DNA of 64,000 nucleotides from Botryllus schlosseri (Eukaryota): positions 13,022,001 to 13,086,000 of the forward strand of contig CM119371.1 of NCBI GenBank assembly GCA_051294905.1. The letters run 5' to 3'. The notes below the pieces were generated by a model. It did not search any database. It worked only from the letters and a program-made list of their open reading frames with translations, and had not been told where the DNA came from. Of the stretch, positions 12,607 to 52,708 are shown piece after piece. The translations under genes and the position numbers were made by a program. Position 1 is the stretch's first letter. The number at the start of each line of letters is the position of its first letter.

Positions 12607-12612
12607 AATAAA
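12607..12612 (+). terminator. Candidate polyadenylation signal of gene 1
   Basis: First AATAAA after the predicted stop at 12453; such hexamers are common in AT-rich DNA. Confidence 0.3.
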
Positions 12613-21470: not shown

Positions 21471-22664
21471 AAAAAATTCGACAACTATACTGATTAGCAT
21501 CAATGTTATGAACTATCTCTAGACTCTCCAAGCTAATACTTTATTACGGTACTGTTCTTGAGTAGCAACAATGTTTGCTACCACCTTGACTCGGCCTGAA
21601 AATATTTCATTAAACTACTTGAGTGGCATTAATGTCGGTATCTATCTCAACCTTGTTACAGATAGCATGGAACTGACCCGAAATTTTATGCAATTCAGCG
21701 CTATATCAAGATCCAAATAAAATTTAGTGCCGTGTCTCTCACATTGATAAAGTTGCCGATTATGGCTAATCTCGTAGTATAGTTGGCGACATTGGAAAAA
21801 GAGATACATTCACAAGAGGCCAGTATTTCCGGCGCATAATGTGTCTGCTTGGTCTTAATGCTTGGTTGCCTTCAGTTATTAAGTCCAAAAAGAAATGCGA
21901 CATCAAGACATTTCCCGCTGTTATCGAAGGGGGGCTGGTGTTTATTCAAATCTGTCGTTGGGTGTTACGGAAGACGGTTTGGCCAAGCCTTTCTATGAGT
22001 ATGGACAGATTTGCTATGCCAAGGTAGAAATTATTTTGTAACGTAGGCCTATGTCTATTGCATCACTGGTCGGCAGTCCACGAGTCTTGTGTAGGCTACA
22101 CTCTAAATCGAGAGCATCGATTTAGACACAAAATTGTGCATTCAAAGATGCAATATGGGACAAACACATAAGTCGACCCAAATCTTTCGCCGAAGTGGTG
22201 TCATAATATGTGCAAGTCCACACTTCATCAGATAAAGTTACGAAATATGTGCTTCTGCTCTCATCTTATCATCTGTCGCCGGCTTTGATCACTATGAAAG
22301 AGTTTACGTATACATTTTAATAGTCCGGTAAGTCGCCGCACGAGTTGTGAGATCAGTAAGATTGAGAGGGATTGTGAGGTCGACGCTGGAAACGCTGCTG
22401 AAATGTAATCGTAATGTCACTGGTAAATGACCAGATCATCCAGGGTAAGGTACGGTACACTCGTGTGCCGATCATGACGTCATCGGTAAACCCAATGACC
22501 CTGGGGTCCGTTTGCTCCCGCTGGGTTATTTGCAGGGGAGGAATTAAGCTGCAAGATATAGATTCTCAAATGATGCAGCATTTCTATAATAGATGTTGAA
22601 CGGTAATAATGACTCTCGTGTAAGTAATGCGTGCTTTTAGCCCCGTTTACATATAGCTCAGAAG

Positions 22665-22861
22665 CAATGTTACCTCTAATTTTGACGAGTCTGCAGCAAA
22701 CGCTCACCTATTCACTGCGCGGTCCCTTGGACAACAGTGCGTAACCACTAAAAAAAAAGGTCATCACTTCGGATTTTTTGTGCGCAACTTATAATTTATG
22801 TGAGCAGAGACCGTGTCAGCTCAAATCAATTGCACACATGCGTACCTAAAAGGGCACATTG
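22665..22861. mobile_element. CAATGTT-family MITE (shared by both EnSpm copies)
   Basis: Ends CAATGTTACCT / AGGGCACATTG; TSD CTCAGAAG/CTCAGGAG. Confidence 0.75.
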
Positions 22862-23333
22862 CTCAGGAGCCATGAAGTGGACTGCTGTTTCATCAATGTC
22901 GCTCCATTATTTTAGTGTGTCGCTTTCTTGCATTTACTGGATTTTGTGAACGTTTCTCTTCTCATTTTATTTACCTACCAAACTGGCAGAAGAAATTGAT
23001 CATTTCAACCCAACTATATATATCATTGTTACAACCACATGATTGCCTGACTTGACTATGACTTCCATGATATTGCTTTTCCTCATTATTGATCATTGAT
23101 ACATCAGCAGTATAGCAATGAAGAAATCAATCAATCAATCAATCATTGTCATCACCATGTAATTTTGAAGTACGTTGTTTAGTAATCGTTAGTGTTACCT
23201 TGCTATTATCAGTGCATTCTGCTTTTGACTGTTGACTGAATAAACATCTCTGTATTTCTCTATTGCTATCCTCCTCTCTCTCTCCCTCTCTCTCATTCAC
23301 GCTTCACATCTCTCGGTAACAGCGGGAACTCAG

Positions 23334-23612
23334 CAGAGATGGGCGGATTCCAAAATTTCGGGATCCGAATCTATCCGGATCCGGCTGGCAATTGGAAATT
23401 CAGAGTCCGAAAAAATCCGGCTGGTGAATGTCCAGTTCGGAATCCGAAAAAATCCTGCCAGAACAATGCTAATTAATCATATTCAGCAAAAAAATCCGGC
23501 TAAAATCCGACCGTCACCCCAAATTCAAAATCCGGATCCAGTCCGGCCAGGTAAAAAATCATTGAAATCCTGCTTCGGATCCGGCTCCTGAACCGGACTG
23601 TGGCCATCTCTG
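23334..23612. mobile_element. hAT MITE present only in EnSpm copy 1
   Basis: TIR CAGAGATGG; TSD GAACTCAG; ATCCGG repeats; empty site at about 35496-35503. Confidence 0.9.
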
Positions 23613-24203
23613 GAACTCAGTCACGGTCAAAGGGTCAAATTTAAATGGAGCGACAGGTCGCAGTACAGTGACTTTGTGGATGTGGATGAACGTGTCGCTA
23701 ATCTCATCATAGCGGAAGGAATAAAGAAGATGTTGATTGCGTACGGCATACGAGAGAACACATTGCTTTAATAATTGAAGGTAATTCGTTCAAGAATATC
23801 AACATGCGATATGTTATGATTACCGGTATGTTGTCAAGAGGGTTCTTACAGCAAGCAGCAGTGTGAGAAATATTGGTAGATTGCCTTTTAGATCAACTTG
23901 CAGTAGCATCGAAACTGAGTTTCAGAATGTCAGTTAATCCTCTAACTTGATGCAATATGGGTTTACAACTAGAATTCTTGACCAAGTTATATAGATCTTG
24001 CTTTGCAGTTGACTCACTTGTTTTTCCAATTACATGACATCTTCATTGGTTGAAAACATGATATTTCATTCATGAACCTATTATAATAATTATTGTTCAT
24101 ATTATCCAGTGAAATAAATCTTATTATATCCATATCAAGTTCCCTCTATACAACAAAGTGGAATGTCCTTCAACCAAATCTTTTACTTTATATTTATTTG
24201 TAG

Positions 24204-24303
24204 GGAAAACAAGCCGCTGCGGTTATGCTCCTGAGGGAGTTACGAAATGCAGTAACTGAAAAGAGAATCCCAACAGGATTTGAGGGCGATAACGCTTTAT
24301 CAG
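24204..24303 (+). pseudogene. Exon remnant of the EnSpm-borne spliced gene; GKQAAAVMLLRELRNAVTEKRIPTGFEGDNALS
   Basis: tttatttgtag acceptor, CAG|gtgagt donor, open frame; homologue with a small deletion at about 36577-36669. Confidence 0.5.
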
Positions 24304-24344
24304 GTGAGTTGTAGGATTTGCTGCTTGATTAACCTGGAACTGGA

Positions 24345-27300
24345 ATTCTAATTCTACCCCTATTTTTAAAATGTTTTTTTAGAATCTAATTTGTGAAAAC
24401 AACTGTGTTACCATAATTCTAATTCTACTCCTATTTTTAAAATGTTTTTTTGCTCTAATTAGAATCTAATTTGTGAAAACAACTGTGTTACCATAATTCT
24501 AATTCTACTCCTATTTTTAAAATGTTTTTTTGCTCTAATTAGAATCTAATTTGTGAAAACAACTGTGTTACCATAATTCTAATTCTACTCCTATTTTTAA
24601 AATGTTTTTTTGCTCTAATTAGAATCTAATTTGTGAAAACAACTGTGTTACCATAATTCTAATTCTACTCCTATTTTTAAAATGTTTTTTTGCTCTAATT
24701 AGAATCTAATTTGTGAAAACAACTGTGTTACCATAATTCTAATTCTACTCCTATTTTTAAAATGTTTTTTTGCTCTAATTAGAATATAATTTGTGATAAG
24801 AACTGTGTCGCTATGATTCTAACTCTACTCCAATTTATGAAATGTTTTTTGCACTAACTAGAATCTAATTTGTGATAACAACTGTGTTGCTGTGATGGTA
24901 ATTCTACTCCTATTTTTGAAATGCTTTTTGCTCCAATTAGAATCTATTTTATGATAACAACTGCGTCGCTATAATTCAATTCTACTCCAATTTGAGAAAT
25001 GTTTTTTTTTATCTAATTAGAATCTAATTTGTGAAAACAACTGTGTTATCATAATTCTAATTCTACTCCTATTTTTAAAATGTTTTTTTGATCTAATTAG
25101 AATCTAATTTGTGAAAACAACTGTGTTATCATAATTCTAATTCTACTCCTATTTTTAAAATGTTTTTTTGATCTAATTAGAATCTAATTTGTGAAAACAA
25201 CTGTGTTACCATAATTCTAATTCTACTCCTATTTTTAAAATGTTTTTTTGATCTAATTAGAATCTAATTTGTGAAAACAACTGTGTTACCATAATTCTAA
25301 TTCTACTCCTACTTTTAAAGTGTTTTTTTGATCTAATTAGAATCTAATTTGTGAAAACAACTGTGTTACCATAATTCTAATTCTACTCCTATTTTTAAAA
25401 TGTTTTTTTGATCTAATTAGAATCTAATTTGTGAAAACAACTGTGTTACCATAATTCTAATTCTACTCCTATTTTTAAAATGTTTTTTTGATCTAATTAG
25501 AATCTAATTTGTGAAAACAACTGTGTTACCATAATTCTAATTCTACTCCTATTTTTAAAATGTTTTTTTGATCTAATTAGAATCTAATTTGTGAAAACAA
25601 CTGTGTTACCATAATTCTAATTCTACTCCTACTTTTAAAATGTTTTTTTGATCTAATTAGAATCTAATTTGTGAAAACAACTGTGTTACCATAATTCTAA
25701 TTCTACTCCTATTTTTAAAATGTTTTTTTGATCTAATTAGAATCTAATTTGTGAAAACAACTGTGTTACCATAATTCTAATTCTACTCCTACTTTTAAAA
25801 TGTTTTTTTGATCTAATTAGAATCTAATTTGTGAAAACAACTGTGTTACCATAATTCTAATTCTACTCCTATTTTTGAAATGTTTTTTGCGCTAATTAGA
25901 ATCTAATTTGTGAAAACAACTGTGTTACCATAATTCTAATTCTACTCCTATTTTTAAAATGTTTTTTTGATTTAATTAGAATCTAATTTGTGAAAACAAC
26001 TGTGTTACCATAATTCTAATTCTACTCCTATTTTTAAAATGTTTTTTTGATCTAATTAGAATCTAATTTGTGAAAACAACTGTGTTACCATAATTCTAAT
26101 TCTACTCCTACTTTTAAAATGTTTTTTTGATCTAATTAGAATCTAATTTGTGAAAACAACTGTGTTACCATAATTCTAATTCTACTCCTATTTTTAAAAT
26201 GTTTTTTTGATCTAATTAGAATCTAATTTGTGAAAACAACTGTGTTACCATAATTCTAATTCTACTCCTATTTTTAAAATGTTTTTTTGATCTAATTAGA
26301 ATCTAATTTGTGAAAACAACTGTGTTACCATAATTCTAATTCTACTCTTATTTTTAAAATGTTTTTTTGATCTAATTAGAATCTAATTTGTGAAAACAAC
26401 TGTTTTACCATAATTCTAATTCTACTCCTACTTTTAAAATGTTTTTTTGATCTAATTAGAATCTAATTTGTGAAAACAACTGTGTTACCATAATTCTAAT
26501 TCTACTCCTACTTTTAAAATGTTTTTTTGATCTAATTAGAATCTAATTTGTGAAAACAACTGTGTTACCATAATTCTAATTCTACTCCTATTTTTAAAAT
26601 GTTTTTTTGATCTAATTAGAATCTAATTTGTGAAAACAACTGTGTTACCATAATTCTAATTCTACTCCTATTTTTAAAATGTTTTTTTTGATCTAATTAG
26701 AATCTAATTTGTGAAAACAACTGTGTTACCATAATTCTAATTCTACTCCTATTTTTAAAATGTTTTTTTGATCTAATTAGAATCTAATTTGTGAAAACAA
26801 CTGTGTTACCATAATTCTAATTCTACTCCTACTTTTAAAATGTTTTTTTGATCTAATTAGAATCTAATTTGTGATAACAACTGTGTCGCTATGACTTTAA
26901 TTCTACTCCAAGTTGGGAAATATTTTTTTGCACTAATTAGAATCTAATTTGTGAAAACAACTGTGTTGCTGTGATGGTAATTCTACTCCAATTTATGAAA
27001 TGTTTTTTGCACTAATTAGAATCTAATTTGTGATAACAACTGTGTCGCTATGACTTTAATTCTACTCCAATTTGGGAAATATTTTTTTGCACATATTAGA
27101 ATCTAATTTGTGAAAACAACTCTGTTGCTATGATTGTAATTCTACTCCAATTTTTGAGATGCTTCTTTGCTTTGAATCAAATGTAATTTGTGGCTGCAAC
27201 TGGTCGCTATGATTCTAATTCCATACCAATTTGTGAAATGTTTCTTTGCTCTAATTAGAATGTAATTTGTGATAAGAACTGTGTCGCTATGATTCTAACT

Positions 27301-27910
27301 CTACTCCAATGAAATGTTTTTTGCACTAACTAGAATCTAATTTGTGATAACAACTGTGTCGCTATGACTTTAATTCTACTCCAATTCGGAAAATATTTTT
27401 TTGCACTGATTAGAATCTAATTTGTGAAAACACTGTGTTGCTACGATTGTAGTTCTACTCCAATTTTTGAAATGCTTCTTTGCTTTGATTCAAATGTAAT
27501 TTGTGGCTGCAACTGGTCGCTTTAATTCTAATTCCATGCCACTTTGTGAAATGTTTCTTTGCTCTAATTAGAAAGTAATTTGTTAAAACAACCGTGTTGC
27601 TAGGATTGTAATTGTACTCCAATTTTTGAAATGTTTTTTGCTTTAATTAGAATCTAATTTGTGATAAAAACTGTGTCGCTATGATTCTAATTCTATCCCA
27701 ATTTGTGAAATGTTTCTTTGCTCTGATTCCAATGTAATTTGTGGTTGCAACTTTGTCGCTACAATTCTATTTCCACACCAATTTGTGAAATGCTTTTTTT
27801 CTCTAATTAGATTCTAATTTGCAAAAACAACTGTGTCGCTATAATTCTAATTCTACACCAATTAGTGAAACGTTTCTTTGCTCTAATTAGAATCTAATTT
27901 ATGATAACTT
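24345..27910. repeat. 80-bp tandem satellite, about 44 units
   Basis: Unit AATCTAATTTGTGAAAACAACTGTGTTACCATAATTCTAATTCTACTCCTATTTTTAAAATGTTTTTTTGATCTAATTAG; near-identical blocks at about 24380-24780 and 25021-26870. Confidence 0.97.
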
Positions 27911-30218
27911 TGTAGCTGTAGTTCTTATTTCTATTTGGAAAAGCTTAAGTTTTTTAATGGTGCAAGCTAGAAATTCACACATTTTCGTCTGCAAATGAAT
28001 GTTCTGTATTGATCCTTCGTTGCAATAAAATCATTTTTGAGCCTAAGCTGAGTAAAAATTGATGGATAACTGGTATTAATTTCGAGCTCTGCACCAGTCA
28101 ACATGAACACACCACCTCTAAACACAGGATAGCCAGGCACACATCGGCTCCAGCACGTTGTGTGGTAGTTAAAAAAAACCGGATTTGGCGTGTAAGTTTG
28201 CGTTCCTCTGCACGCATTCGAATTTAGAGTGTACTGGATTTTTAGATCGAAAATCTAGGATAAAATAGTATTACGGTGGGCACCACTATAATAAATAATT
28301 GAAGAATTGGTCAACGTAAATACTATTTTATTCATAATTCCAATTTTTTGACGGCAATAACTTCGCTTCCACTGGTTGGAATCGAACAACAAATTTGGTG
28401 AGCATAGTTTCTATAGTATAGACAACCTAACACTATCATGCGGTGAATATAAAATTTTCAAATTTTCTGTTATTTATTTTTATATAATAAATAGAAACTT
28501 TCTTCTCCTGTAGCAATGCGGCCACTTGTTGGAATTGAACCAAATTTGGTGTGTATGCTTAAATCAGGTAACCAAACAATTTTATCAAGTAGACAGTACG
28601 ATTTGAGAAAAAAGGTGATTTTTGAAGACCCCTATTATATATACTATCAATTCCGCAGAGTATTAGCCTGTGGTTGGAATTGAAACAAATTTGGTGAGCA
28701 TAGTTTCTATAGTAGGCCTATAGACAACCTAACACTGTCATGGGGTTAACTGACATTTTTTACCGAAAAACAACTAGCACTGGAACTTCTGAATAACCAG
28801 TAGTTAGTTGATCGCCAACTAACTAGATTGGTAGTTTGTACAAGACTGACTATAAACGTGTGGGTGACTGCCATTTTAGAGCGAGACCCTGGACGGGAAT
28901 GAGCTTCGAGTATATCAAGCTGTGAGCAGAACCGAAGGGTAAATGTTGCTCAACCAACAGAAGTAGCAAAAGAATTAGGAGGGGGACAAGAGGAATTTGC
29001 ATCTTGGCAGATCAAGGCTCGTACGACAAGGTACTTGTGGGGGTCAATATACAGAACAAATTTTTCATTATAGTGGTGGTGACGTACTCTTGGCGAGTGG
29101 TTGGCAATTTTTTCAAGAGGAAATAAGTGGAAATAAAACCAGCATTTACATTCGACCACATATTGTTTTCTGACAATGAAAAAGATCTAACGAGTAGTGT
29201 TGCAGCTGCAATTAGAAGGAAATGTGGATACACAAAAGTATTCTAAAATGATTGTTTTCAGTGGTATTGCGCTCTAAATATAAAGTGGCCTTCAATTGGA
29301 AATAAATTAAGAAAATAATTTTTGACCGCAGATATTTTCTTCAAAAAGCCACCGTACTGCAAATAAATTTTTTCCATAACACCGTGTTCCACTCCAGTTG
29401 TATCCATTCTTCCACGGCTGCGCAAATCTATTCATCTGTGTGTTGAACAGCTATCAGGTACTATCTTCTTGCTGCTGAGCCATGGGTAAATGATGCCAAT
29501 GCCAAATATCCCATGTGCCTCTTCCAGACCACTACGACAGGTTGTGAGGTCATAAATACGATAACATATCACAGCTTGAAAATCACCTCTGTATTAATAG
29601 CTCAATATACCTCAATATTCAATCATTGGCATCTCGGTATCAGTCCGACACCCTGCCAAATATGATAGCATCAAGAAAACTTCCAACATGCTTCTGACAC
29701 AAATCCAACTGGTTGAAGTTTCCGTCAGGCGCAGTCCTGTTAAGAACCACCAACTTGATTTTGATTCGTGGGTTTATTTTCAAAGGGCTACAACTTTGGT
29801 GTGGGTTAAACTCTATTTTACGTTCAGATGTACATGGAAGGTACGGTTGAAATGTTACGATTTTTTTCTGACAAGTCTTCTTCGACTTCACTAATAAAAA
29901 TCTTCTGAAACGGGTTGTAGGGTATAGGCTGCTTTGAACAGTTTGATATAATAATTACAGCATTGTAAATTGTGTTGTCATGGTAAGTCATGGTAAGTCA
30001 TGGTAAGCTACGCATCTGTTCCTTGAACATCGCTTCTGTACTAGCATCTAGTTTCTGAGGCATGATTAAATGATGCAAAATAGTCTCTCTCTTCCGCGCA
30101 AGACCACTATGACAGGCTGTGCTTTCACAAACACGCCAGCATATCACAGTTTGATAATTGGCGCCTGGATAGTTTTGCCTCAATATACAACCGTTGGCAT
30201 CTTAGTATCCAGTTAGAC

Positions 30219-32286: not shown

Positions 32287-34867
32287 AGTTAGACCAACCG
32301 AGAAATATGATAAAGTGAAGGAAATTTAACGATAGCATCAGACACTAATCCACCAGGCTTGAACGTCTTTGAGTTATTGCGACACAACAAATAGCTTAGG
32401 TGACCCTGACCCCGCTTGGGGTTGCCACCCACAAATTGCCGATCACTGATCAATATCCGTCATCTAAAAATCAAAATGGACTCAATGTGTATTCACGGTA
32501 ATTGCGTGGAAGTCGAAAGCAAATATACAAAGCGGTGACATTGGCACGTGATTTCGTGAAGGCTAAAGATCTGCGCACACTCAGTTTATGGATGAAAACA
32601 GCTAATGACAGAGACGTCACTATTCCATATATAGGTTACATACCGGATGTACGCAGAAAACAGAATAATTTTTCTGTGGTCGCACCTTTGTATACCTTCC
32701 GACTTAAAAGTGTCCCGCCTTCCACAAAAAACAGGACATGTAATTTATTAATAAATGAACCAAATTCCAGCGCCCGCAGTAACAGGTAAAACTTTGGCCT
32801 ATTTCGGAATGCATAGCCTTCAGAGGATGGGGCCAACGCTACACCACAACTAAAACGAGGAAGCAAAGATGTATGTCGACAGATATCGTCGATAAAACCA
32901 CTGATTTGGCGGTTTATAAGTATATTCATTTATTCAATCGACCAATAATCATAGTATTTTCGTGAAAATGGGGGTACCGTTTAGCTTTCAAGGCAAAAAA
33001 TCATCGTATTTTAAGCAATTCCGGTGTTTTGGAATAAATGGGTGTCTAGAATTGACCCACTGTGATCCGTGATATAGTGGCTATATACTATCATTATGTA
33101 TATGCTTTATAGAAGAGCATTCAAATTTTTTTTAATCATTTGAAGGGTTCGGCGCGATCAATAGGTTTGAATCTGGCCCGCGACCTAAGTTGAGTCCCCT
33201 GATGTAGGGACTTTTAGAGTAACGAATAGGAGGCCTAGAGGGACCATTGGATGCGACTATGTTTCTGAAGTATGTATTTGGATTGGATTTGAATCTTAAT
33301 TCCGGAATGGCTTTTGGATACAGAAATACTAAATCCACCACCTCCGCTACACAGTAAGGGCTATAAAAATGATATGGAAAGTTTCGTAATTTAATTATTT
33401 ACGTCATTTGCGATTTTCCAAACGCAATTTGTGGTCGGCCGTGCGTATATATAACATGATAGATAAGAATATTGGAATATCTCCTGGTGACATTTGATGA
33501 AGTGACAATGACATTTTGTCATTATTATTATCATGAAAAACGTGACGCTTTCGACTGATGATGTGTTTTGCACCACGCGTAAGATAGTTGCAATGCAACG
33601 ATAAGAATATGCATAGGAATAGGCGCCGAGGTACGGGGAGGCGGGGTGGCGCAGCCACCCCATGACACATTTATGGGGTGGCGGCCACACCATACAATAA
33701 GTTCAAACGCCCGACGTCTGCGATTTCAAATCATCAGCGCTGTCAATTAGCGAGTCCGTGATAGCGCGTAAATGCCAACTATTTACCATTAACCGATACG
33801 CGCGAGAATAATTGAATACTCAGTTTCGTCGGCGACGACGAACTATAGTGCTTAAAACGCCCCAATAAATTGCAATCCGTGATTTGTAATCAGACAATGG
33901 CAGCAACCTCGTTTACGACGTCGATTTCCACACTCTTACGTTGATAAACACCATCTTCTCACTCGACCAGACGAGCGAATTCGCGTTCTCCTTCTCTTGA
34001 TTAAATTGTATTTGCGCCCATATTCGTTTGCAAAATAATTCCTGAGTTAAGTCCGTGTTAGTCTCTTAATTGTTGGAGGCTTGGATGCAGGAGTAGAACA
34101 GTGTGTTTGTGTAGCCTATGTCCGCGAATTGAAAGTCATTCCTGCGCAAAGTGCTCATATTCATTACTAACATGGCTTTGCCAACTTTTATTGGGGAATG
34201 CAAGAATGCAGCTCATACGTCGTTATGATGAGCAAACAATTATCGCGATGTCAGACCCGGAACCGTACTGTACGCAAGTTGAGGAAATACTGATTAGATG
34301 CGCGCTTTCTCGTTTGCTACACTCTAAATCGAAAGCATCGATTTAGACACAAAATTGTGCATTCTAAGATGCAATATGGGACAAACACATAAAGTCGACC
34401 CAAATCTTTCGCCGCAGTGGTGTCATAATATGTACAGGTCCACACTTCATCAGATAAAGTTACGAAATATTTGCTTCTGCTCACATCTTATCATCTGTCG
34501 CCGGCTTTGATCACTATGAAAGAGTATACGTATACATTTTAATAGTCCGGTAAGTCGCCGCACGAGTTGTGAGATCAGTAAGATTGAGAGGGAAACGCTG
34601 CTGGAACTTATCGTAATGTCACTGGTAAATGACCAGATCATCCAAGGTAAGGTACGGTACACTCCTGTGCCGATCATGACGTCATCGGTAAACCCAATGA
34701 CCCTGGGGTCCGTTTGCTCCCAATGGGTTATTTGCAGGGGAGGAATTAAGCTGCAAGATATATATTCTCAAATGATGCAGCATTTCTATAATAGATGTTG
34801 AACGGTATTAACGACTCTAGTGTGAGTAATGCGTGCTTTTAATAGCCCCGTTTACATAGCTCAGAAG

Positions 34868-35065
34868 CAATGTTCCCTCTAATTTTGACGACTCTGCAGC
34901 AAGCGCTCACCTACTCACTGCGCGGTCCCTTGGACAACAGTGCGTAACCACTAGAAAATGTCATCTCTTCGGATTTTTTGTGCGCAAATTATATTTTATG
35001 TGAGCAGAGACCGTGTCAGCTCAAAGCAATTGCACACGTGCGTACCTAAGATCCGGGGCACATTG
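34868..35065. mobile_element. CAATGTT-family MITE, same site as 22665-22861
   Basis: Same ends and same TSD pair CTCAGAAG/CTCAGGAG. Confidence 0.75.
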
Positions 35066-35770
35066 CTCAGGAGCCATGAAGTGGACTGCTGTTTCATCAC
35101 TGTCGCTTTCTTGCATTTACTAGGTTTTGTGAACGTTTCTCTTCTCATTTTATTTACCTACCAAACTGGCAGAAGAAATTGATCATTTCAACCCAATTAT
35201 ATATATCATTGTTACAACCACATGATTGTCTGACTTGACTATGACTTCCATTATATTGCGTTCCATTATTGATCATTAACATATCAGCAGTATAGCAATC
35301 AAGAAATCAGTCAATCAATCAATCATTGTCATCACCATGTAATTTTGAAGTACGTTGTTTAGTAATCTTTAGTGTTACCTGGCTATTATCAGTGCATTCT
35401 GCTTTTGACTGTTGACTGAATAAACATCTCTATATTTCTCTATTGCTATCCCCCTCTCTCTCTCATTCACGCTTCACATCTCTCGGTAACGGCGGGAACT
35501 CAGTCAGGGTCAAAGGTCAATACACAGCATCAGTAAGTCGCAGTACAGTGACTTTGTGGATGTGGATGAACGTGTCGCTATTCTCATCATAGCGGAAGGA
35601 ATGGAGAAGATTTTGATTGCGTACGGCATTACGAGAGAACACATTGCTTTCATTGAAGGTAATTCGTTCAAGAATATCAACATGCGATATGTTATGATTA
35701 CCGGTATGTTGTCAAGAGGGTTCTTACAGCAAGCAGCAGTGTGAGAAATATTAGTAGATTGCCTATTAGA

Positions 35771-36007
35771 TAGGCTTACCATACGTCCTCTTTTAAGAGG
35801 ATTTGTCCTCTTTTTTGACTTTTTTGAAAGTCAACCAACTAGCGATGTGGAGTAAATAACGTTATTTTGGGATCTTTTTTTTTTTTAGTCAACCGATCAC
35901 AAAGTGGGAAAAATTAGCCGAATTTTGAGAATTTCACTCCGGTTTTGCAAGTGGAAAATTTCTGAAAAAGTGTCCTCTTTTTTGATTTCCAAAATATGGT
36001 AAGCCTA
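35771..36007. mobile_element. TAGGCTTACCATA-family MITE (deleted form) present only in EnSpm copy 2
   Basis: Perfect TIR; TSD CTATTAGA; empty site (cttttaga) at about 23885-23892. Confidence 0.9.
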
Positions 36008-37055
36008 CTATTAGATCAACTTGCAGTAGCATCGAAACTGAGTTTCAGAATGTCAGTTAATCCTCTAACTTGGTGCAACGTGGGTTTGATACTAGAATTC
36101 TTGACCAAGTTATATACATCTTGCTTTGCAGTTGACTCACTTGTTTACTCACTCACTTGAAATAAATCTTATTATATTCATATCAAGCTCCCTCTATATA
36201 ACACACAGAAGTGTGTGTGCATGCTTAGCTCACTACATAGCTGCTTTTATAGTAACACTTTGCCTTTGTAATAGATCAGAGCGGGGTTTTAAATGGTCGT
36301 TCCGAGGAGTGTCGAACCGAAATACTTACTACTCATGCCGAAATATTTGGAGTAGAGCTAGAGACAGATGAAGAGGTTAGTATTATTTAACTATTCTATT
36401 CTATTCCAGAATGAATTTATTCGTTGGGATAATCCTGTTTATATTTGTTGCAATTTTATATATTAAATATTGTTGTGGCAAAACTCTTGCCTTCATATCA
36501 ACCGGAATGCAATAAGTGGAATGTCCTTCAACCAAATCTTCTACATTATTTATATTTATTATTATATTTATTCGTAGGGCCGCTGCGGTTATGCTCCTGA
36601 TGGAGTTACGAAATGCAGTAACTGAAAAGAGAATCACAACAGGATTTGAGGGCGATAACGCTTTATCAGGTGAGTTGTAGGATTTGCTGCTTGCTCAACC
36701 TGGAACTGTGTGAACAATGAACATAGATGTACCATAACGTCCTGATTTGTCAGATTTGTACGATTTCGACACTTGTCCTGATTTTTCGGCAAACATTGTT
36801 CGGCGTTTTCTGTAACACCTTGGAGGTTTTGCATGCCACTATCTTCCACAAGTTCGAACTTAACAGACCGTCACAAAAGTACAGCTAGTTGTTTGAAAAT
36901 TTTATGGCTTAACATGCGCGCATGTTGAGTTGGTTCTAATTCGGGGGTCTGTTAATTTCCAAGTTGCGCCACAAACATGTGTTCTAATTCGGGGTCTGTT
37001 GAGCTCAGACGTGTGCCACCAAAATGTGGCACAATTGTTTTTGGGTGCTGAAAAT

Positions 37056-37360
37056 GGTTGCCCGACATATGAGCATGCGACACAATGGAAAACGACACAG
37101 TTCAGCATGGAACACATCAGCATGCGTCACTTCAGCATGTGACTGTATAACCCAAAAACTTACCCTAACCCGAAACATAGCCTAACCTAACCTAACCTAG
37201 CCTAACCTAACCTAAAGCCTAACCCTAACCCAACCATAAATCCAACCATAACCTACCCCTAACCCGTAATTTAACCCACATGCTCATGTGTCGCATGCCA
37301 AATTGTCGCATGCCGAAGTCTCGCATGCTGTAATGTCGCATGCTCATATGTCCAAGGACC
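37056..37360. mobile_element. MULE-like MITE with internal telomere-like (C)CTAA repeats
   Basis: Inverted ends containing GACATATGAGCATGCGACA; 9-bp TSD GCTGAAAAT/GCTGCAAAT; CCTAA/CCCTAA run about 37163-37275. Confidence 0.75.
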
Positions 37361-38008
37361 GCTGCAAATATGGTAGGCCTGTGTTTTGATTGACGCTATT
37401 TGCGTTATGACGGTGCAAGAAACACTCGAACTGAAAAAAGGCCTCCAAAAATAAATGTTTATTAGATGCTTTTTAATTGCATCATTCTTTTTGATAAGGC
37501 TAAATCTAAGTTAGAATGAGCTGGCGTAAATTCGTTTTTGTCCCACACCATGGAAAATCATTTCTGCTGCTAATGTAATTTTTGGTTTTCCTGACTTCGA
37601 GTCCATGAGGATGGCTACCATGGATATAGTGCATAAAATCAGTGAATGTGAACTTGAACATAATACTTGTGCCGTTTCAAAAGGAACCTGTATGATGGTA
37701 TACTGATGAAATCTGAATGGATCAATACAGGTTAGTAAACTTATGATTATGTGGAAAAACCCATACATATCAACGACTAGACAGCATATTGTGACGACAG
37801 AATTTGCTATCACTTGTTTCCATGAGTTAAGCCTGTTAAACCATATTGACAAAAACCTATATTCACCTATTCAGCTCTATTTTTATTGAATATTCATTAT
37901 GCAGAAGTCCCATAAAGGCATTTTTACATAATCCAAATCTTGTGCTTTCAATTCACACATGGATTATTGGCAATATAATTTTACTTAACATATTTCTTTC
38001 AATTCCAG

Positions 38009-38300
38009 GCCAGGCCCATTCAGTCCAATTAACGGCCACAAAGCTGAGTCCTCGACATCTTATACTAGCGCACCATGAAAATGGTGACCTGCAGTCATGG
38101 ATCGTGGCGAATGGCTTCCACATAAAGGGATCGTCTCACAATAAAGTGAAACCATTTGAGATGGTGCTGGATCTTCTAGCGTTTTATTATGTTTGTGAGC
38201 CCGCATATCCAAAAGTTTTCCAGATCTGTCAATTTTACAGTATATCCTGATTGGAGACAAAAATTTGGGTTTCAATCAAACAAGCTTCTCTGTTTTATGA
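38009..38300 (+). pseudogene. Frameshifted last exon of the EnSpm accessory (ORF2-like) gene
   Basis: Acceptor tttctttcaattccag; DLLAFYYVCEPAYPKVFQ then, after a 1-nt shift, LSILQYILIGDK; resembles the YYVFNxxYPK...FLQ motif of SAMD3-like/animal EnSpm second proteins (recognised from memory). Confidence 0.55.
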
Positions 38301-38359
38301 GCAGATTTCAGAAATCCCAGTAATGATTTTGATTTCGTTTGCTGACTTGTACAACTATC

Positions 38360-39601
38360 CAATTCTAGTACTAGTCTAGTTGTCTAATTAGAGTGAAAAA
38401 TAATGTGTAGCTAAAATTCTGATTATACTCAAGTTTTGAAAAAAAAACTAGCTATAATTATAATTCTACTTAATTCGTGAAGTGCTTCGTCTCTCTAATT
38501 CGAATCTTATTTGTGAAAACAACTGAACCTATAATTCTAATTGTCCTCTAATTTGGAAAAACAGTGTAGCTATAGTTCTAATTCTTTATAATTTGAAAAA
38601 AACTGTTCTATAATTCTGATCCCACTCTAATTTAAAAAAAACGAGCTACAAATCTACTTCTACTCTAATTTGGAAAAAGCTGTGTAGCTATAAATTCTGA
38701 TGCTACTCTAATGTGTAAAATGTTTCTTTGCTCTCAATCGAATCTAATTTAGAAAACAACTACCGTATAGCTATATTTCTAATTATACTCTAATTTGAAG
38801 TAAAAACGACCACTAATTGGATTCTAGTCTAATTCAGAAAATATACTGCAGTAATTATTCTGATTCTACTCCAAATTTTCAAATGATACTTTGCTCTGAT
38901 TCGAATCTAATTTGTGATAACAACTGTGTCGCTGTAATTCTAATTCTACTCAATTTGGGAAATGTTTTTTTGATCTAATTAGAATATAATTTGTGAAAAC
39001 AACTGTGTTACCAAAATTCTAATTCTACGCCAATTTTTGAAATGTTTTTTTTTGCTTTAATTAGAATTTAATTTGTGATAACAACTGTGTCGCTATGACT
39101 TTAATTCTACTCCAATTTGTGAAATGTTTCGCTCTGATTCAAATGTAATTTGTGTTTGCAACTGTGTCGCTATAATTCTAATTCCATACCAATTTGTGAA
39201 ATGTTTCTTTGCTCTAATTGGAAACTAATTTGTGAAAACAACCGTGTCGCTAGGATTGTAATTCTACTCCAATTTTTGATATGTTTTTTGCTCTAATTAG
39301 AATCTAATTTGTGATAACAACTGTGTCGCTATGGTTCTAACTCTACTCCAATTTATGAAATGTTTTTTGCACTAATTAGAATCTAATTTGTGATAACAAC
39401 TGTGTCGCTATGACATTAATTCTACTCCAATTTGGGAAATGTTTTTTGCACTAATTAGAATCTAATTTGTGAAAACAACTGTGTTGCTATGATTGTAATT
39501 CTACTCCAATTTGGGAAATGGTTTTTGCACTAATTAAAATCTAATTTGTGAAAACAACTGTTGCTATGATTGTAATTCAACCCCAATTTGTGAAATGTTT
39601 C
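38360..39601. repeat. 80-bp satellite in EnSpm copy 2, left part, grading from degenerate about 40-bp monomers
   Basis: Same unit as 24345-27910 but heterogeneous; irregular short units 38360-38870. Confidence 0.9.
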
Positions 39602-39855
39602 TGTTATGTTCTTGATCTTGTTTGAACAATAACTCAATACGACGAGGTTGCAATACGGAATCAGTATATTATACAGCAGAATAACTTCAGGCAGCGACAC
39701 GATCCAGAGTATAGTTAATTGAAATAGCACGAGACAACAGAACACAGGGTATAAATACAAGCACGACACACGAGGAAATAATGATTGACGGTAATTAATA
39801 GTCCTATAGAAATTAGGAGTTGAACAACACTGAACGTAAATGCACGAACATAACA
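39602..39855 (-). repeat. 3' LTR
   Basis: TGTTATGTTC...GAACATAACA; 8 substitutions in 254 bp versus the other LTR (counted by eye). Confidence 0.95.
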
Positions 39856-39857
39856 GT

Positions 39858-39865
39858 CCTCCCCT
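39858..39865 (-). other. Polypurine tract
   Basis: AGGGGAGG on the minus strand, 2 nt before the 3' LTR. Confidence 0.8.
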
Positions 39866-39888
39866 GTAAGTTAAAGGGATGCCCACAT

Positions 39889-42800
39889 TTACGTAGGTCT
39901 ATAGAAATCCGGGGGTTTCCTATTCCTAGGAGGATAACGTCTACCCGACGTACGGGCAGGACTAGCTGCAGGACCTTGTGCCCTGTTCCTCACCAATGGT
40001 TGCTCAGCTTGTGACTGTTGCGGCTGAGCAACATCCTGTGTAGCTGTATTATTGCCTGCTGAAATCAAGCGTGGTTGGAGTTGGTTCTTGTGCCTTCTCC
40101 AGTACCCATGATCTGTTTTTATAATGTACACAACACGCCCCAGTATTTCCGTTACCATGCCAGCAACCCACTTTGGTCCCCGTCGGTAACTACGAGCGTA
40201 AACCGAGGAACCAATCTCGAAATGAGTGACCGATTGTCTAGGCGTAACGGGTTTCGATTTATCGAAGGGCGAGCACAAACTTAACAGATTGCGCGGCTGC
40301 CGACCATGTAAAATATCCGCAGGCGTTTTCCAGTCTATGCCCGGGTGCGGTGCACATCGGTATGTAGCGAGAAGTGTTTGGAGCGCGAAGTTGAGATCTT
40401 TTCCCCCGTCGCAATTTTTTAGTAATCCAGCTTTAAAGTCTGGACGAAACACTCCGCTTCCCCGTTCGATGCAGGGTGAAAAGACGGTGATACGATATGG
40501 CTAATTGCCAAATTAGAGCAAAACGTATCGAATTCATCCGATGTGAATTGCGGCCCGCCATCCGCGACAATTGTTACGGGCAAGCCTTCAATAGAGAAGA
40601 CTTCCCGCAAAGCGTTGACTACACACAAGGTTGTGGTAGATCCGACATTCATTACTTTAACGAAAGGATATTTCGAATGCGCATCGACGATCACAAGAAA
40701 CATTTTATTGTTTATTGGACCTGCGAAGTCCAAGTGAATTCGATCAAAGCTTTCGGAAGTTTTGGGCCATTCGCGATATTGACGATCAGGCGCTTTCATT
40801 ACTTTGCGGCAAGCGTCGCAACTCTTTACGAGATTTTCAATGTCGCGATTAATAGAAGGCCATGCGATGTAACGTCGAGCCATCTGCTTCATTTTCGCGA
40901 TACCCCAATGTCCTTCGTGCAACAACGATAAGACTCGAGAGCGAAGTGACTGCGGAATTACTACGCGCTGAAAACCATCAATATTGAGCATGACTTGACT
41001 ATGTCTTCGTGCAGAGAAAGCGAATGTTTGCGAGTCGAAAACCAAGAAAAATCATCAATGTGCGTCTTTGGATTCCAATTACCATGAGCGACAGATAATT
41101 TTACTAGTTTCATGGTTTTGTCCTTCAGCGTCGCGTCGCGAATTTCATTGCGAGCCATCGAATGCCATATTAATAGCGTGAACGATCTCCGCGTTTTCAC
41201 GAATTTCCAGTTCGTCAAACTCAGGGTCTGGACCCTTTGGTAGGCGAGATAAACCGTCGGCGTTTCCGTGCTGATTAGTCCGTTTATAGCGAATGTCGTA
41301 TTGGTAAGCCATGAGCGTTAGTGCCCATCGCTGTAAGCGTTGCGCTGTAATCACGGGAATTTTCTTGTCTGGCGAGAAAATAGCTAAAAGCGGTTTGTGG
41401 TCCGTTACGAGCGTAAATTTTCTACCATACAAGAATTGACGAAATTTAGTGACTCCGTAAATGATTGACAGAGCTTCCTTCTCGATTTGAGAGTAGGATT
41501 TTTGCGAATCGGAAAGTGTTTTCGATGCGTCTCTCTTCGCCATTGTGCTCGATCGAGAGGACAGCGCCGATTCCGAATTGAGAAGCATCCGTCGACAACA
41601 TGAGCTGCTTGTTTATATCATAATGAGCTAACTGCGTACGTCGATTACGTCGTTTTTGAGAATGCGAAAAGCTGCGTCACAGTCCGTATTCCAAATGAAT
41701 TTCGCGTCTTTTTGAAGAAGACGGTACAAGGCAGCGGCTTTATTCGTGAAATTAGGAATAAACGCGCGGTAATAATCGACTTTGCCCAGGAATGCCTGTA
41801 GCTGGCGAACATCCTGAGGTTTAGGCAACTGTTTGATTGCTTCAACGGATTTCTGAGACGGGCGTTTGTCGTCCTTGTCGATTATATGACCAAGGTACTC
41901 GATACTACTTTTGAAAAATTCACATTTCGCGAAATTGACGGTGAAACCGTATTCGGTGAGGCGCTAAAAGAGTAGTGATAAGTTGCGAAAATGATCGCGT
42001 TCATCAATACCAGTAACGATTATGTCATCGATAAAACTAGCAACACCGGGTAAGCCGGCGATCATGGCATCAATACAGCGTTGAAAATTTGCTGGACTAG
42101 ATGCGACTCCGAAACACATGCGTCGACAACGGAATAGACCGAATTGCGTGTTGATGACACACAAATTCTTCGCATCATCATCTAATTCTAGCTGAAAATA
42201 AGCATCGGCAAGATCAATTTTCGAGAAAATACAATTACCCTGTAACTTGTGAAGAATTTCATCCAAGGAGGGCAGGGGATGTTGATCTATCTGAATTTGT
42301 TGATTCAATGCTTTGAAGTCACCACAAATGCGTACTGATCCATTAGACTTGATGACGGCAACAATTGGTGCTGCCCAATCACTGTAATTGATTGGTTCGA
42401 GGATACCTTGATTGACTAGTCTATCCAATTCGGTTTGAACAGCGATTTGCCTTGCGAAAGGCAAAGGACGTGGCTTGTTAAATACGGGCTTGGCATTAGG
42501 TTTCAAGTGAATTGTCACCTTTGTCTTGGTGCATCGTCCTAATACATTAGAGAAAACGGAGGAAAATTTGGACTGAAAAGATACCAATTTGTCGTTCGAA
42601 TCAGAAATGTAAATAGTATTACATGATTGCGATTTGACCATCTGCGAGGAAATTGCATCCTAAGCAGAAGTTCCCTTAGCGGTCATGGAGAAAGCATCGC
42701 TCCAATCGAGACTAAAAATGTTTTGCCCACGGTGTTCGTCGAGAACTACCAATTTTAAGCCAACTCGAACTTCAGAACCCACCTGCACGGTTACAGTGCA

Positions 42801-44119
42801 AATATCTTTCACTTTCAGTGGCTTGTCGCCGTACGCTACGAAAGAGCAATGGTATGCTGAGAGTTTCGGAGAGCCCAAAGTTTTGTACCCAGTCAACCCC
42901 ACCATGGCGGAGGGTGCACCAGTGTCCCACTGTGTCGGCAACGGAATGCCGTTGATGCTGGAGTTGATCCAGAGCTGGTTTCCTACGCGTCGATATAGTA
43001 GATCGATGTCGAAGGAGAGGAGTGGCACTGAGCAGAAATTGACGGATGTGACCTGTTGCGTGATACTAGGTTTGGTAGACATGCACACAGGTTTTATATG
43101 ACCTTTACGACCACATTTCTGACATACTGCATGTCGATATTGACAGTCTTTTCTCTGGTGATCGATGAAACAGCGGCTGCAGGATTTCAGTCTTTCCGGG
43201 AAGTTGCCTTGGATGGATTTGCAAGGTTTTCTCCCCTTCTGATAACTTCCCGTCATTTTGTTGACGATGGAAGTGTCTTTACCGCTACTCTCGCCCCGGA
43301 TAACCCTATCGGTTTCCAGCGTTCTCACGTGTGTTGCAGCTACTTTGAGAACGTCGTCAAGGGATGGATTGGTTTGTGTTAGACAATGCCGTCTCACATC
43401 CGCGTGCGGCGTTTCTTTAATGATGAGATCGCGCATTAGCTCATCAACGTAGCTCTGAACACAGCCATCTCTTGAGCATGTGAAGTTGCAATCCTTGGAG
43501 ATTCCGCGTAGAGGTGCGATCCAATCGGCGTACGATTGCCCCGGTTGCATTTTGCAATTGTAAAATTCGTACCTGGCTGCTTGCACATGAATTGAGTCCT
43601 TGAAGTGTGTTGACAATTTCTCAGTCAACGCGTCGAAAGTTTGCGCACTGACATCAGCAGCACCACCAAACAAATTACGTAGGAGCGAGTACGTTTCAGG
43701 TCCAACTCATGAGAGTAGACACGCTCTTTTCTTCTCCATGTTGGAAATGCCGTAAATTGCTAGGTAATGGTTGAATCGCTGGAGATATTGGTCCCACTTC
43801 TCCTTTGAATTTACGAACGAATCAAACTTGGAGCGGTAGCTTCTGATGTTGACGTACCGGGACTCAACCTCTGTGATAATTGCGATATGGCTTGCTCATG
43901 CTGCAGCTTTTGCTGTGCCATGTCTTCTCTGTGCTGTGCGCGTTGTTGGTCCAAATCTTCTCTGTGCCGAGCATTTTGCTGCTCCAGATTTGCCTGTTGC
44001 TGCTCCAGCTCTTCTTTACGCTGTGCTTTTTGATTTGCCATGGTTTCTTCATGCTGCCTTTGTTGCTTCGCCATCATTTCTTGCTGCTGCTCTAGAAGCT
44101 TCAATATACTTGCTTCCAT
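39889..44119 (-). pseudogene. gag-pol: gag-pol polyprotein broken by several stops and frameshifts
   Basis: Zn knuckles CSRCFIDHQRKDC and CQKCGRKGHIKPVC; protease WDTGA; RT VRICGDFK, FSKIDLADAY, ASFIDD; RNase H YSQIEKEAL, TDHKPL, NADGLSR; integrase HEGH..CDAC, HLDFAGP, SNGEAE. Confidence 0.95.
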
Positions 44120-44149
44120 AATGTTTCTCAGTCGCAGAAATAAATATGA

Positions 44150-44167
44150 ATCCGACTTCTGACACCA
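44150..44167 (-). other. Primer binding site, tRNA-Leu type
   Basis: TGGTGTCAGAAGTCGGAT, 2 nt after the 5' LTR, complementary with one mismatch to the tRNA-Leu(CAA) 3' end ATCCCACTTCTGACACCA. Confidence 0.8.
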
Positions 44168-44169
44168 AT

Positions 44170-44423
44170 TGTTATGTTCTTGATCTTGTTTGAACAATAT
44201 CTCAATACGACGAGGTTGCAACACGGAATCAGTATATTATACAGCAGAATAACTTCAGGCAGCGACACGATCCAGAGTATAGTTAATTGAAAGAGCACGA
44301 GACAACAGAACACAGGGTATAAATACAAGCATGACACACGAGGAAATAATGATTGGCGGTAATTACTAGTCCTATATAAATTAGGAGTTGAACAACACTG
44401 AACGAAAATGCACGAACATAACA
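44170..44423 (-). repeat. 5' LTR
   Basis: Direct repeat of 39602-39855. Confidence 0.95.
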
Positions 44424-44780
44424 GTTTCTTTGCTCTAATTTGAATCTAATTTGTGAAAACAACTGTGTTACCATAATTCTAATTCTACTCCAATTTTTGA
44501 AATGTTTATTTTGCTCTAATTAGGATCTAATTTGTGATAACAATTGTGTCGCTATGACTCTAATTCTACTCCAATTTGGGAAATATTTTTTGTAATAATT
44601 AGAATCAAATTTTTGAAAACAACTGTGTTGCTATGATTGTAATTCTACTCCAATTTGTGAAATGTTTCTTCGCTCTGATTCAAATGTAATTTGTGTTTGC
44701 AACTGTGTCGCTATAATTCTAATTCCATACCAATTTGTGAAATGTTTCTTTGCTCTAATTAGAAACTAATTTATGATAAC
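44424..44780. repeat. 80-bp satellite in EnSpm copy 2, right part
   Basis: Unit resumes in register after the TSD; about 4 units. Confidence 0.9.
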
Positions 44781-47700
44781 TTTGTATCTGTAGGTAGTTC
44801 TTATTTCTATTTGGAAAAGCTTAAGTTTTTCAATTGTACAAGCTAGAAATGCACACATTTTCGTCTGCAAATGAATGTTCTGTATTCATCTTTCGTTGCA
44901 ATAAAAAAAATTTTGAGCCTAAGCTGAGTAAATTTCATGGATGGCTGGTATTAATTTCGAGCTCTGCACCAGTCAGCATGAACACACCACCACTAAACAC
45001 AGGATAGCCAGGCACACATCGGCTCCAGCACGTTGTGTGGTAGTTTAAAAAAACGGATTTGGCGTGTAAGTTTGCGTTCCTCTGCACGCATTCGAATTTA
45101 GAGTGTATCATCCATCTGTAGGCTGTAGGCGACTAACTCTTGTCTGTTTTATACAATCGTATTCCATCGGTGTCACTTGTCAGTGTTTGATTTGTTATAA
45201 ATTATGTGTATTGTGCAGTGCACGGCGTTGAATTACGTTCTCAAATATTGATGCAATACGGGAGTCTCGGTGGCGCAAATTCTGAATATTTTCGATTAGT
45301 TTGAACGGGAATCTTCTATGTTCCAATAAACTTCATCGAGCGCAACCATATCGCGGATCGAATTTAAAACCTTTGGGATATGTGTTATTAGTGATAAGGT
45401 CGCGGCATGCGCCCATATTGCTCTTGCGGCAAGAACACGTGGATAATTAAAAGCGCACCGTTCCACGTTTTAAATCGACTGGCTGATCGGGGCATACGTA
45501 TAGGCCGTAGGCCCGGGGCAGATATTACCAGCGGGTTGTTGGCAATAAAACCCTAGGTGCGTGGCCAGGGAGTTTCACATTTATAGCTAGAAATCATGTC
45601 CTTTAGAAATGCCAATTCAATAATTCGTATTATCGATGCCGCCTAATCCAAATTAGCGAGAATCAATTGTATGTGACATGGGTCATCGATATCTCATGTG
45701 CACTATCGTCGGTGGTTTGATTTAGCGTGTCCACATGCAGGCCTGCTACCATTGGCAGAAACACTTTCGCCAAACAGTAACAATCTATGAGTGTAATATA
45801 GTTTGTGTTATGTATCTGTTTGATTAAAACTTATGCCCGCATCTGAACAAATTGTGCTCATTGTCATTACCGAATCTGGGTATTTAGGTATGACTAGCGC
45901 ACCATGTAACTGCAATTATTGCAGGTTTGCGGCATGTCTGCAATTTCGTTATCAGCGCAACCTTGCTGGCCGATTGTTCAGTCAGATAAAATTGATCACT
46001 ACTATTTCGCACGGCGTACTGATGTTGATTTCAGCAAACGAACGATCCTTATTAGATCTACAAATTCGACCTCATCGTTAGAAACGTAGATTTCCTCGCG
46101 CGCTCTGAGAAACACCATCTTCTATCGCGATTTGATGACGAAATATACGATCACCTTCTACAACGTCAAGTGCATTATTTGCAGCGATGAGGGCCGTAAG
46201 CCGCGTTCAAAATATTTTGTGGACCCCAATTTTGTGGTAAATATTCTCGGAGCGCAACGTTAAACATTGTTTTATTGTCAGTGCCTGCTAGTTGGAATTT
46301 ATTTCAGTGCCCATACTATTAATCCTATTATGCTTTGCGAACGTAAATCGGAAAATGCAGCAATGCAGTCAAAATCGATGTTTTAATCAGCAACCAATTG
46401 CTACTGAATACTAACTAAAAACCCATTGTGTTGGCGGTAACAGATATTTACTGATTGGCCGCGCGCGTTTGTAATCATAATTCTCGTCTGTCTTTCGTGT
46501 TCCAGAATTGTCGCGCTGTGAAACCTACCAAGACCAACATGCTACGTTGTTACAGTGTTTCATATACTTGAAAATGCCTTAAACATTTACAAATCCGACT
46601 CATCGCAAAATGGATGATGCAGAAATGATTACGAGCCGACTACAATGTAGTATTCCAATTGAAGCGATACCTTTCAAGCCATGTATGAAATCGATTACCT
46701 TATGTCACTTATCATTTTGCGAAAGTAATGTATAATTCATTCACATGGTGATTCCCTTATTATACGTGGCATGGATGGTGTCACTTGCGAGAGGTGCCCT
46801 TGGAACTCTTATGGCCATCACTACTATCAATAATAGCATCAGACTTGTGTAGAAGCTACCATGTTAGTTTTTACTTTGAACAATATGCCTGATGAAGTTA
46901 CCAATTTATTCATTAGGATATAGGCCTCTACATAGATGAGGGGTAATACCATATAGATGCGCCACATGCGAGAAGCAGACGTGAAACACCAAATGGAAAT
47001 ATTATAAAATGGATCATGAGCAATATAGCGTCTAACACAATTTTCATATTTCTTGTTGTAGTCCGAGCTCATAGAAGCTTTGTCGTTTTCCTGGGTCGAA
47101 CCAAGCGGCATAATCAATAAGGATTGAATGATAACAATATCATATGATAGTCTGATACGTTGCTACGTCATTAGATTGTGTTTTTGTGCGGTGAGTATGT
47201 CCGGAAGTGTGAGTCATTAAATATGTTGGATTAATATTCAACAAAAAATCCATTAGCTACACATAGCGGAGTGGACATTCCTCTGAGTAATTATGACTGA
47301 ACCGAGGGAATTGTTGCTGAGTTATCGCTTTTCTGGATTAGCTGCTTGTGGAAGTCTTCTAAGGTTAGGTTAAGTTTGAGTTAAAATAACGGGTCGACGT
47401 TTAGGATGAAGGTTTTATCAACGAGACAGTGAAGTCCAATAAGTAGTCAAGTATAATATTTGTTTCATATGACAGGCGATGTAGAAAGTAGCATATCGCT
47501 GTATGTACTTCATGAACAATAGCAAAGAGCTACGCTAATCTGCTTTAAATTGATATGCATTCGATTTTATTTAGTTGATCAGGTTTCACTTGGCATTTCG
47601 TTTGATCATACGAATAAATGAATAACGAAAATAATACTTATATGCAGTACAGTGCCATAATCATATATGAATTAAAGACTACCACTTTTGGTGCTATTTC

Positions 47701-52360: not shown

Positions 52361-52708
52361 TAGGCTTACCATACGTCCTCTTTTGAGAGGATATGGCCTA
52401 TTTTTTGACTTTTTTGAAAGTGTCCTCGGAGGGCGACCTTTTGTCCTCTTTTTTGAGATTTTGTCCTCTTTTTTGAAAATTCAGATCAGATTTAGAGCAA
52501 ATTGCCAGTGATATGCCGTGAATTGACGCTCCGTAGGGTATTTCGGAGCGAAAAACGGTATTTTGAGCCCCGAGTGGAAATATGACCTTTTTTATTTTCT
52601 ATTTTTTAGTCATCCACCTAGCATCACGGAGAAAAAAAAACGGTAGCCTATTATGAGCTCAGAGCGGAAAGTTGACCCTTTTTTTTAGTCAACCGATCAC
52701 AAAGTGGG
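52361..52708. mobile_element. TAGGCTTACCATA-family MITE, right end missing
   Basis: Left TIR and body align to 4506-4920; sequence breaks off after cacaaagtggg. Confidence 0.8.

Follow-up and report, generated by a model that had tools for sequence, protein, structure and literature searches.

Tandem satellite arrays carried inside DNA transposons have been described in several systems, and these and other systems close to the present case are outlined first. The CACTA-like element Jozin of Chenopodium quinoa, which is present in several copies, contains an internal 171-bp satellite of 32.5 units and 5.5 kb (PMC8978399), and plant CACTA elements are defined by CACTA ends together with a 3-bp duplication (PMC4158355). 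The zebrafish element EnSpm-N49/N49B is a non-autonomous CMC-EnSpm element with inverted repeats starting with CACTC, CACTCAAAAAAATGA, a 2-bp duplication, and an autonomous partner (PMC13189230). In maize En/Spm, the second gene is spliced, one of its early introns houses the transposase open reading frame (ORF), and deletion derivatives move in trans (PMC2613891). Further transposon-borne satellites are represented by miDNA4 of Xenopus tropicalis, Tetris of Drosophila virilis, and the central arrays of Helitrons and Helentrons (PMC9659126, PMC12628747). The present analysis concerns a stretch of 64 kb from Botryllus schlosseri (contig CM119371.1, positions 13,022,001 to 13,086,000), hereafter the window, in which two copies, A and B, of one transposon-like element each hold an array of an 80-bp repeat. 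We consider it probable, with good confidence, that A and B are independent insertions of a transposase-less, TA-preferring member of the CMC/EnSpm group, and that the array grew inside this element, which was mobilised by a partner.

Copies A (22099-28231) and B (34320-45105) are collinear in a self-BLAST of the window. The matching blocks, given as A/B, are 22095-23333/34316-35503, 23612-23893/35495-35771, and 23885-24023/36008-36146 in the left part, with the remaining blocks at 24156-24342/36514-36708 and 27553-28233/44424-45107. Both copies share the ends TA-CACTCTAAAT...ATTTAGAGTG-TA, and on that strand of the window CACTCTAAAT occurs at 22099 and 34320 only and ATTTAGAGTG at 28222 and 45096 only. 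The 10-bp terminal inverted repeat is exact, TA stands outside all four ends, and among the TA-CAC..GTG-TA pairs of the window 10 matching bases are reached by the ends of A and B alone. On the right side the homology ends at TA, and the left flanks share the four bases GCTA and nothing beyond. An earlier, sequence-only reading of this DNA had claimed a TA-bounded duplicate with unrelated flanks and an 80-bp array about 300 bp inside the right end of both copies; the self-BLAST and the exact 10-bp ends confirm the former, and the array-to-terminus distances of 323 bp in A and 325 bp in B bear out the latter. Across the arms, 85 of the 1989 aligned positions differ between A and B (4.3% ± 0.5%). 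The left subterminal palindrome is borne out by the folding of the outermost 62 nt of this end (z -4.4, with none of 200 shuffles equally good).

Reads point to many further insertions. Contigs from four of the 20 read runs listed (X1, which may be the source sample, X5, X7, and X17) were aligned to 27930-35760. Over the arms and the exon region, their summed depth, which by the warning of the tool is not copy number, was about 7,900-11,300 in X1, where unique-looking contigs had 16-23, and 4,300-12,700, a threefold spread, in X17, where such contigs had 44-50. It was about 80-180 in X5 and about 8-12 in X7, and within X1, X5, and X7 the right arm, the left arm, and the exon region were similar. 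These depths suggest hundreds of element copies with both ends. Among the contigs listed, one of X7 stops matching at 28233 and one of X5 at 34318, that is, at the TA beside the terminus, and both contigs carry 30 unmatched letters past it. Copies A and B are spaced about 6 kb apart in the same orientation, which would suit a local segmental duplication or an assembly artefact in place of transposition, but hardly any credence can be given to this explanation, as homology stops at the inverted repeats with TA, the flanks are unrelated, the copies are 4.3% apart and bear different nested insertions, and the arms have high read depth, with contigs showing other flanks.

Tandem Repeats Finder places arrays of period 79-80 at 24379-27908 (44.3 copies), 38857-39600 (9.4 copies), and 44424-44780 (4.5 copies), and an array of period 38 at 38494-38720; both of the two mature arrays in the window lie inside element termini. 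The array of A comprises 28 near-identical units (24388-24787 and 25026-26865), on average 1.7% apart, and 16 heterogeneous units, on average 18% apart, and the 12 analysed units of B, a set that omits the unit cut by the long terminal repeat (LTR) retrotransposon and the degenerate block, are on average 16% apart. A B unit lies within 10% for 13 of the 16 heterogeneous A units, three being without such a match, and the amplified A type is 3.7-5% from unit B10, although units within one copy average 16-18% apart. Since variants are common to A and B, the variant set predates the separation of A and B and was passed on within the element, the pattern expected of a transposon-dispersed satellite, and the proposed transport of the array by the element is thereby supported at these two sites; across the genome, the family may disperse the satellite in this way, as the sequence-only reading supposed. 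The value of 1.7%, set against 4.3% for the arms, makes the amplification in the A lineage younger than the split. The sequence-only reading had further described the array as being in two different states and proposed that it expands independently at each insertion. A did amplify one variant, whereas the state of B is largely a matter of retrotransposon insertion, not of array dynamics; amplification after the split holds for the A lineage, but it may have occurred in a donor copy before insertion here.

The origin of the repeat can be followed further in B, where the stop codon of a helper gene is followed, at a distance of no more than a few tens of bases, by the first degenerate repeats. 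The halves of one 80-bp unit are weakly alike (33 of 2000 shuffles as good, for one unit and with a cut chosen by the analyst), which is no more than suggestive of an origin of the unit as a dimer, formed in place. The 80-bp repeat might instead be an independent satellite residing mostly outside the element, a piece of it having been captured once or its units being exchanged with outside arrays by gene conversion, with the element playing a minor role in its spreading. Related 42-bp repeats do lie at 11807-12290, within a segment that has a different CACT-type end and for which no right end was found, a related monomer without CACTA context is described from another species in the Chenopodium work (PMC8978399), and the uniform block of A could have been copied in from elsewhere; even so, such an origin is judged unlikely, given that the array grades from repeats of about 40 bp at the helper stop codon, fitting an origin in place, that the amplified variant is present in B already, and that cross-copy monomer distances of 4-10% are near the arm distance of 4.3%. 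A regular higher-order repeat was considered and rejected, the dip at lag 4 being weak and restricted to A32-44, with none in B, as was a hairpin in the 80-bp monomer (z -0.4 and 0.0). The exact 80-bp unit had 0 matches in prokaryote genomes and 0 in viral contigs, and the exact left-terminus pattern had 0 matches in metagenome contigs.

The helper gene is present as a remnant. Four exon-like pieces with AG..GT borders were noted on the + strand of B, and the three upstream ones are predicted to be helper exons from splice signals alone. Among the five matches of the last exon are four unnamed protein relatives (E 1e-22 to 4e-5); the fifth, P0005, is a repetitive protein matching by chance and was kept out of the alignments. 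A profile of the four relatives finds four longer proteins, two of which are uncharacterised oyster proteins, and SAM-domain matches occur in three of the four, one of them above the Pfam cut-off. The last exon spans three frames and thus contains two frameshifts. The label 'SAMD3-like', which has no database name behind it, is our assumption for the helper. A Pfam search with the four exon peptides gave no credible family, a single-sequence search among longer proteins gave no match, and in the Atlas the exon had no usable match, with protein P0002 matching unnamed eukaryote clusters only; in the literature on transposons and EnSpm, SAMD3 was absent among the matches listed.

Relatives of the helper were found in metagenome contigs at 50 loci, forming 22 sequence clusters. 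At three of these loci (L011, L025, and L033), an ORF of 799-838 amino acids lies upstream on the same strand, and these are three of the four loci having at least 6 kb of upstream sequence. L025 is a complete element, TA-CACTG..CAGTG-TA, with TA-CACTGTAAAAAATGTG at both ends, a long ORF between the helper exons, motif clusters at both ends, and an array of eight 24-bp units near its right end, and the outermost 25 bases at the left of A agree in 20 positions with those of L033, which codes for a transposase. The family of ORFs of about 800 amino acids has 163 matches, of which the best 120 were listed; 57 of these were aligned with the three ORFs to give 60 sequences, in which a Pfam search allowing E up to 1 found DUF4218 in 26, Transposase_21/Tnp2 in seven (best E 4e-5), and Plavaka in two. 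DUF4218 is taken by us to be part of plant CACTA transposases. A structure model of the ORF (predicted local distance difference test, pLDDT, 90) has RAG1 and Transib as its best structural matches, and a PDB sequence search with the transposase profile returned mainly zinc fingers. The Pfam matches and the RAG1/Transib fold together identify the neighbouring ORFs as DDE transposases of the CACTA/EnSpm kind. The CACTA/EnSpm-like class first proposed for A and B is supported by a helper family that occurs beside EnSpm-type transposases in elements with TA-CACT ends. An EnSpm transposase, for which a search had been recommended, was found in the relatives at L011, L025, and L033 and not in the window.

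The termini of the relatives provide additional information on the target site. By a rule set after the data were seen, a repeat cluster followed by AGTG was recognized at 17 of the 30 loci having at least 1 kb of downstream sequence (10 of the 22 clusters), and at 15 distinct sites the next bases are TA in 12, AT in two, and TG in one; the occurrence of TA and AT within one sequence cluster suggests that these are host bases beside the terminus. The left end is preceded by GCTA in A, B, and L033, and many relatives have TAG after their right ends, hinting at a target preference that may be wider than TA. One relative, seen at L039 (2035, 2338) and L040 (1882, 2185), shows two right ends 303 bp apart with the same flank after each, an arrangement read as a tandem duplication of the element end.

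A and B fit the animal CMC/EnSpm group. They have short inverted repeats starting with CACT, autonomous relatives with a transposase of the EnSpm type, and a spliced second gene in the position of ORF2/TnpA, broken in B and deleted in A; in the subterminal regions there are the left palindrome and, 323 bp inside the right end, the array, with no adjoining motif cluster at either terminus. A Tnp2/TnpD-type DDE transposase is lacking inside the element. Their ends read CACTC instead of CACTA, and a putative flanking duplication of 2 bp stands where plant elements have one of 3 bp, which places them outside the strict plant CACTA definition (CACTA ends, 3-bp duplication). Neither tblastn nor hmmsearch found a transposase or a remnant of one in the window, and A and B are therefore non-autonomous; this lack rules out autonomy, not descent.

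Several observations weigh against this assignment and the history proposed for the two copies. With no transposase in the window, it is the helper gene and the termini that carry the assignment to the group. The CACTA-family Pfam matches are all weak, the three neighbouring ORFs themselves have no match to Transposase_21, L049 is without a transposase in its 6 kb of upstream sequence, and the upstream candidate exons have no protein match. The repeats of the relatives reach both termini and are of another motif, whereas A and B have a non-repetitive right arm of 323 bp and no repeat cluster at the left end. TA is found on all four sides of A and B, and because no empty site was seen, it might belong to the terminus. 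Furthermore, among the matches listed no loose-end or joint rows fall at the termini, and the arrays of the family that were read number only two.

In terms of function, the array is most likely a passenger. It is possible, though not favoured, that it constitutes a subterminal repeat region in which candidate helper-binding sites have been amplified and act in transposition or self-regulation. TnpA binds subterminal repeats of maize En/Spm (PMC2613891), one short motif is clustered near the right end in the relatives (17 of 30 loci), with a true tandem array in L025, and the monomer variants have been retained in both A and B. The terminus core ACTCTAAAT, at no more than one mismatch, occurs five times in the old B repeats against 0.9 expected (0 of 300 shuffles), but such matches, lying in a tandem repeat, cannot be counted as independent, no enrichment of this core is seen in a single unit (with two mismatches allowed, 44 of 300 shuffles do as well), and no match to it at one mismatch occurs in the mature arrays; moreover, the motif cluster is absent from the left end and the right arm of A and B, and unit number differs threefold between them. 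That the 80-bp satellite consists of overgrown candidate sites at which the SAM-domain helper of the same element binds appears unlikely; if it were true, animal EnSpm-type elements would breed satellites at a single fixed place, with the helper gene on one side and the right end on the other, and in the host genome a satellite would stand ready as a target for each helper protein.

Under the preferred reading, of independent insertions of a partner-mobilised EnSpm-type element, the ancestral element would have carried a spliced SAM-domain helper gene. A repeat of about 40 bp, observed in place just behind the helper stop codon, would have grown there and fused, perhaps as a dimer, to the 80-bp unit, which would then have diversified into several variants inside the element, and the transposase of an autonomous relative elsewhere in the genome may have moved the element and array together. 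After the split, a deletion would have removed the last exon and the old repeats from the A lineage, A being deleted for the region that B has between about 36709 and the array (junction 24342/24343), and one variant reached the 28 units observed, presumably by unequal exchange or slippage. In B, as can be seen directly, a Gypsy retrotransposon was taken into the array.

Like Jozin, A and B are CACTA/EnSpm elements with a multi-kilobase satellite that follows the coding region and precedes the 3' end. Jozin is a plant element with a transposase, a 3-bp CACTA duplication, and an array described as captured (PMC8978399), whereas A and B are animal elements with CACTC ends, a 2-bp TA, no transposase, and an array grading from older repeats. 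EnSpm-N49/N49B resembles them in its CACTC start and 2-bp target duplication and differs in its 15-bp repeat, the CA duplication of the described case, and its length of 2.5 kb, and the word 'tandem' is absent from the main text on it (PMC13189230). The two-gene plan of En/Spm recurs in L025, although the helper, unlike the En/Spm product, is a SAM-domain family protein, likened to TnpA by position only; the short repeats of En/Spm stand at both ends (PMC2613891), in contrast to one long array on the 3' side only in A and B. As in miDNA4, Tetris, and the Helitrons, the satellite unit would have its origin or expansion within a non-autonomous DNA transposon that also spreads it; these systems, as described, belong to other superfamilies and contain no helper gene remnant. 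An internal satellite in an EnSpm element of an animal was not found in the literature searched, the coverage of which was partial and included few subscription journals and Repbase reports. A and B are a clear animal example of a known route of satellite spread, and since the general process is already in reviews, the surprise is small. One window nevertheless presents several stages side by side, namely, old repeats of about 40 bp, common 80-bp variants, and a young uniform expansion, and the plant CACTA case is extended to an animal EnSpm-type family. As this family probably has hundreds of copies, array birth and expansion could be traced across many paired insertions.

The coordinates of the features are collected in Table 1. 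The retrotransposon in B has 254-bp LTRs (TG..CA) with 8 differing sites and a 5-bp duplication, GTTTC; its LTR pair is 3.1% ± 1.1% apart, an age that cannot be ordered firmly against the A/B split or the A amplification. Its coding part consists of several separate ORFs matching reverse transcriptase, RNase H, and integrase in Gypsy order, which we take to be a Gypsy mark. The nested element of A at 23334-23612 is presumably hAT-like, going by the length of its target-site duplication. A family of short elements that end in TAGGCTTACCATA and vary in the length of their interior has four copies in the window (4505-5019, 35771-36007, 52361-52727, and 56243-56653). In B, 37075-37360 contains CCTAA and 15-bp repeats and is probably another nested insertion, the borders of which are not fixed.

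Table 1. Features of the two element copies (window coordinates).
Feature	Coordinates	Strand	Remarks
Copy A, EnSpm-type	22099..28231	+	6133 bp; TA both sides
Left terminal inverted repeat CACTCTAAAT	A 22099..22108; B 34320-34329	+	
Left subterminal palindrome	22102..22126		Two 10-bp arms, 5-base loop; in B too
Nested short element, A only	23334..23612		CAGAGATGG ends; 8-bp duplication; 279 bp
Candidate helper exon, A	24204..24303	+	AG..GT, open frame; no protein match
80-bp array of A	24343..27908	+	44 delimited units; 5' edge is the deletion junction
Right arm of A	27909..28231	+	Non-repetitive; right inverted repeat 28222-28231
Copy B	34320..45105	+	10786 bp; about 5.7 kb minus two well-defined insertions; TA both sides
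Candidate helper exon	35528..35658	+	AG..GT; open frame in B and a frameshift in A; without significant protein match
Nested short element, B only	35771..36007		TAGGCTTACCATA ends; 8-bp duplication CTATTAGA; 237 bp
Candidate helper exon	36275..36375	+	Not in A
Candidate helper exon	36578..36669	+	Counterpart of A 24204-24303; small 5'-edge deletion
Helper last exon	38009..38326	+	C-terminal region, animal SAM-domain protein family; missing from A
Degenerate repeats of about 38-42 bp	38340..38908	+	Grading into 80-bp units; not in A
80-bp array of B, 5' part	38909..39601	+	Heterogeneous units
Gypsy-type LTR retrotransposon	39602..44423	-	Within the array of B; 4.8 kb
80-bp array of B, 3' part	44424..44780	+	
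Right arm of B	44781..45105	+	Right inverted repeat 45096-45105

Other parts of the window contain further repeats. A related fragment on the - strand at 11807-12766 has the end TA-CACTGCACAAAA at 12766, and its 42-bp repeats are 71% similar over 157 bp to the degenerate repeats of B (E 2.5e-8); a matching other end and a helper-gene match were not found for this fragment, which possibly represents a sister family in which the short form of the repeat persists. At 30490-32288 lies an element whose inverted ends are CAGTGGTTCTTAACC and whose read depth is very high, and a segment of it (31058-31243) is 77-81% similar to an inner part of A (22665-22862), to an inner part of B, and to 58499-58576. 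Between the short direct repeats 5171-5243 and 5303-5375 lies 5250-5305, which we take to resemble the 5' part of a U6 small nuclear RNA gene, and 14835-15170 presumably resembles a short interspersed nuclear element derived from a transfer RNA. Exon-like pieces of host genes are seen at 420-580, 2545-2715, and 57967-58067, the last with a hydrophobic, membrane-anchor-like stretch.

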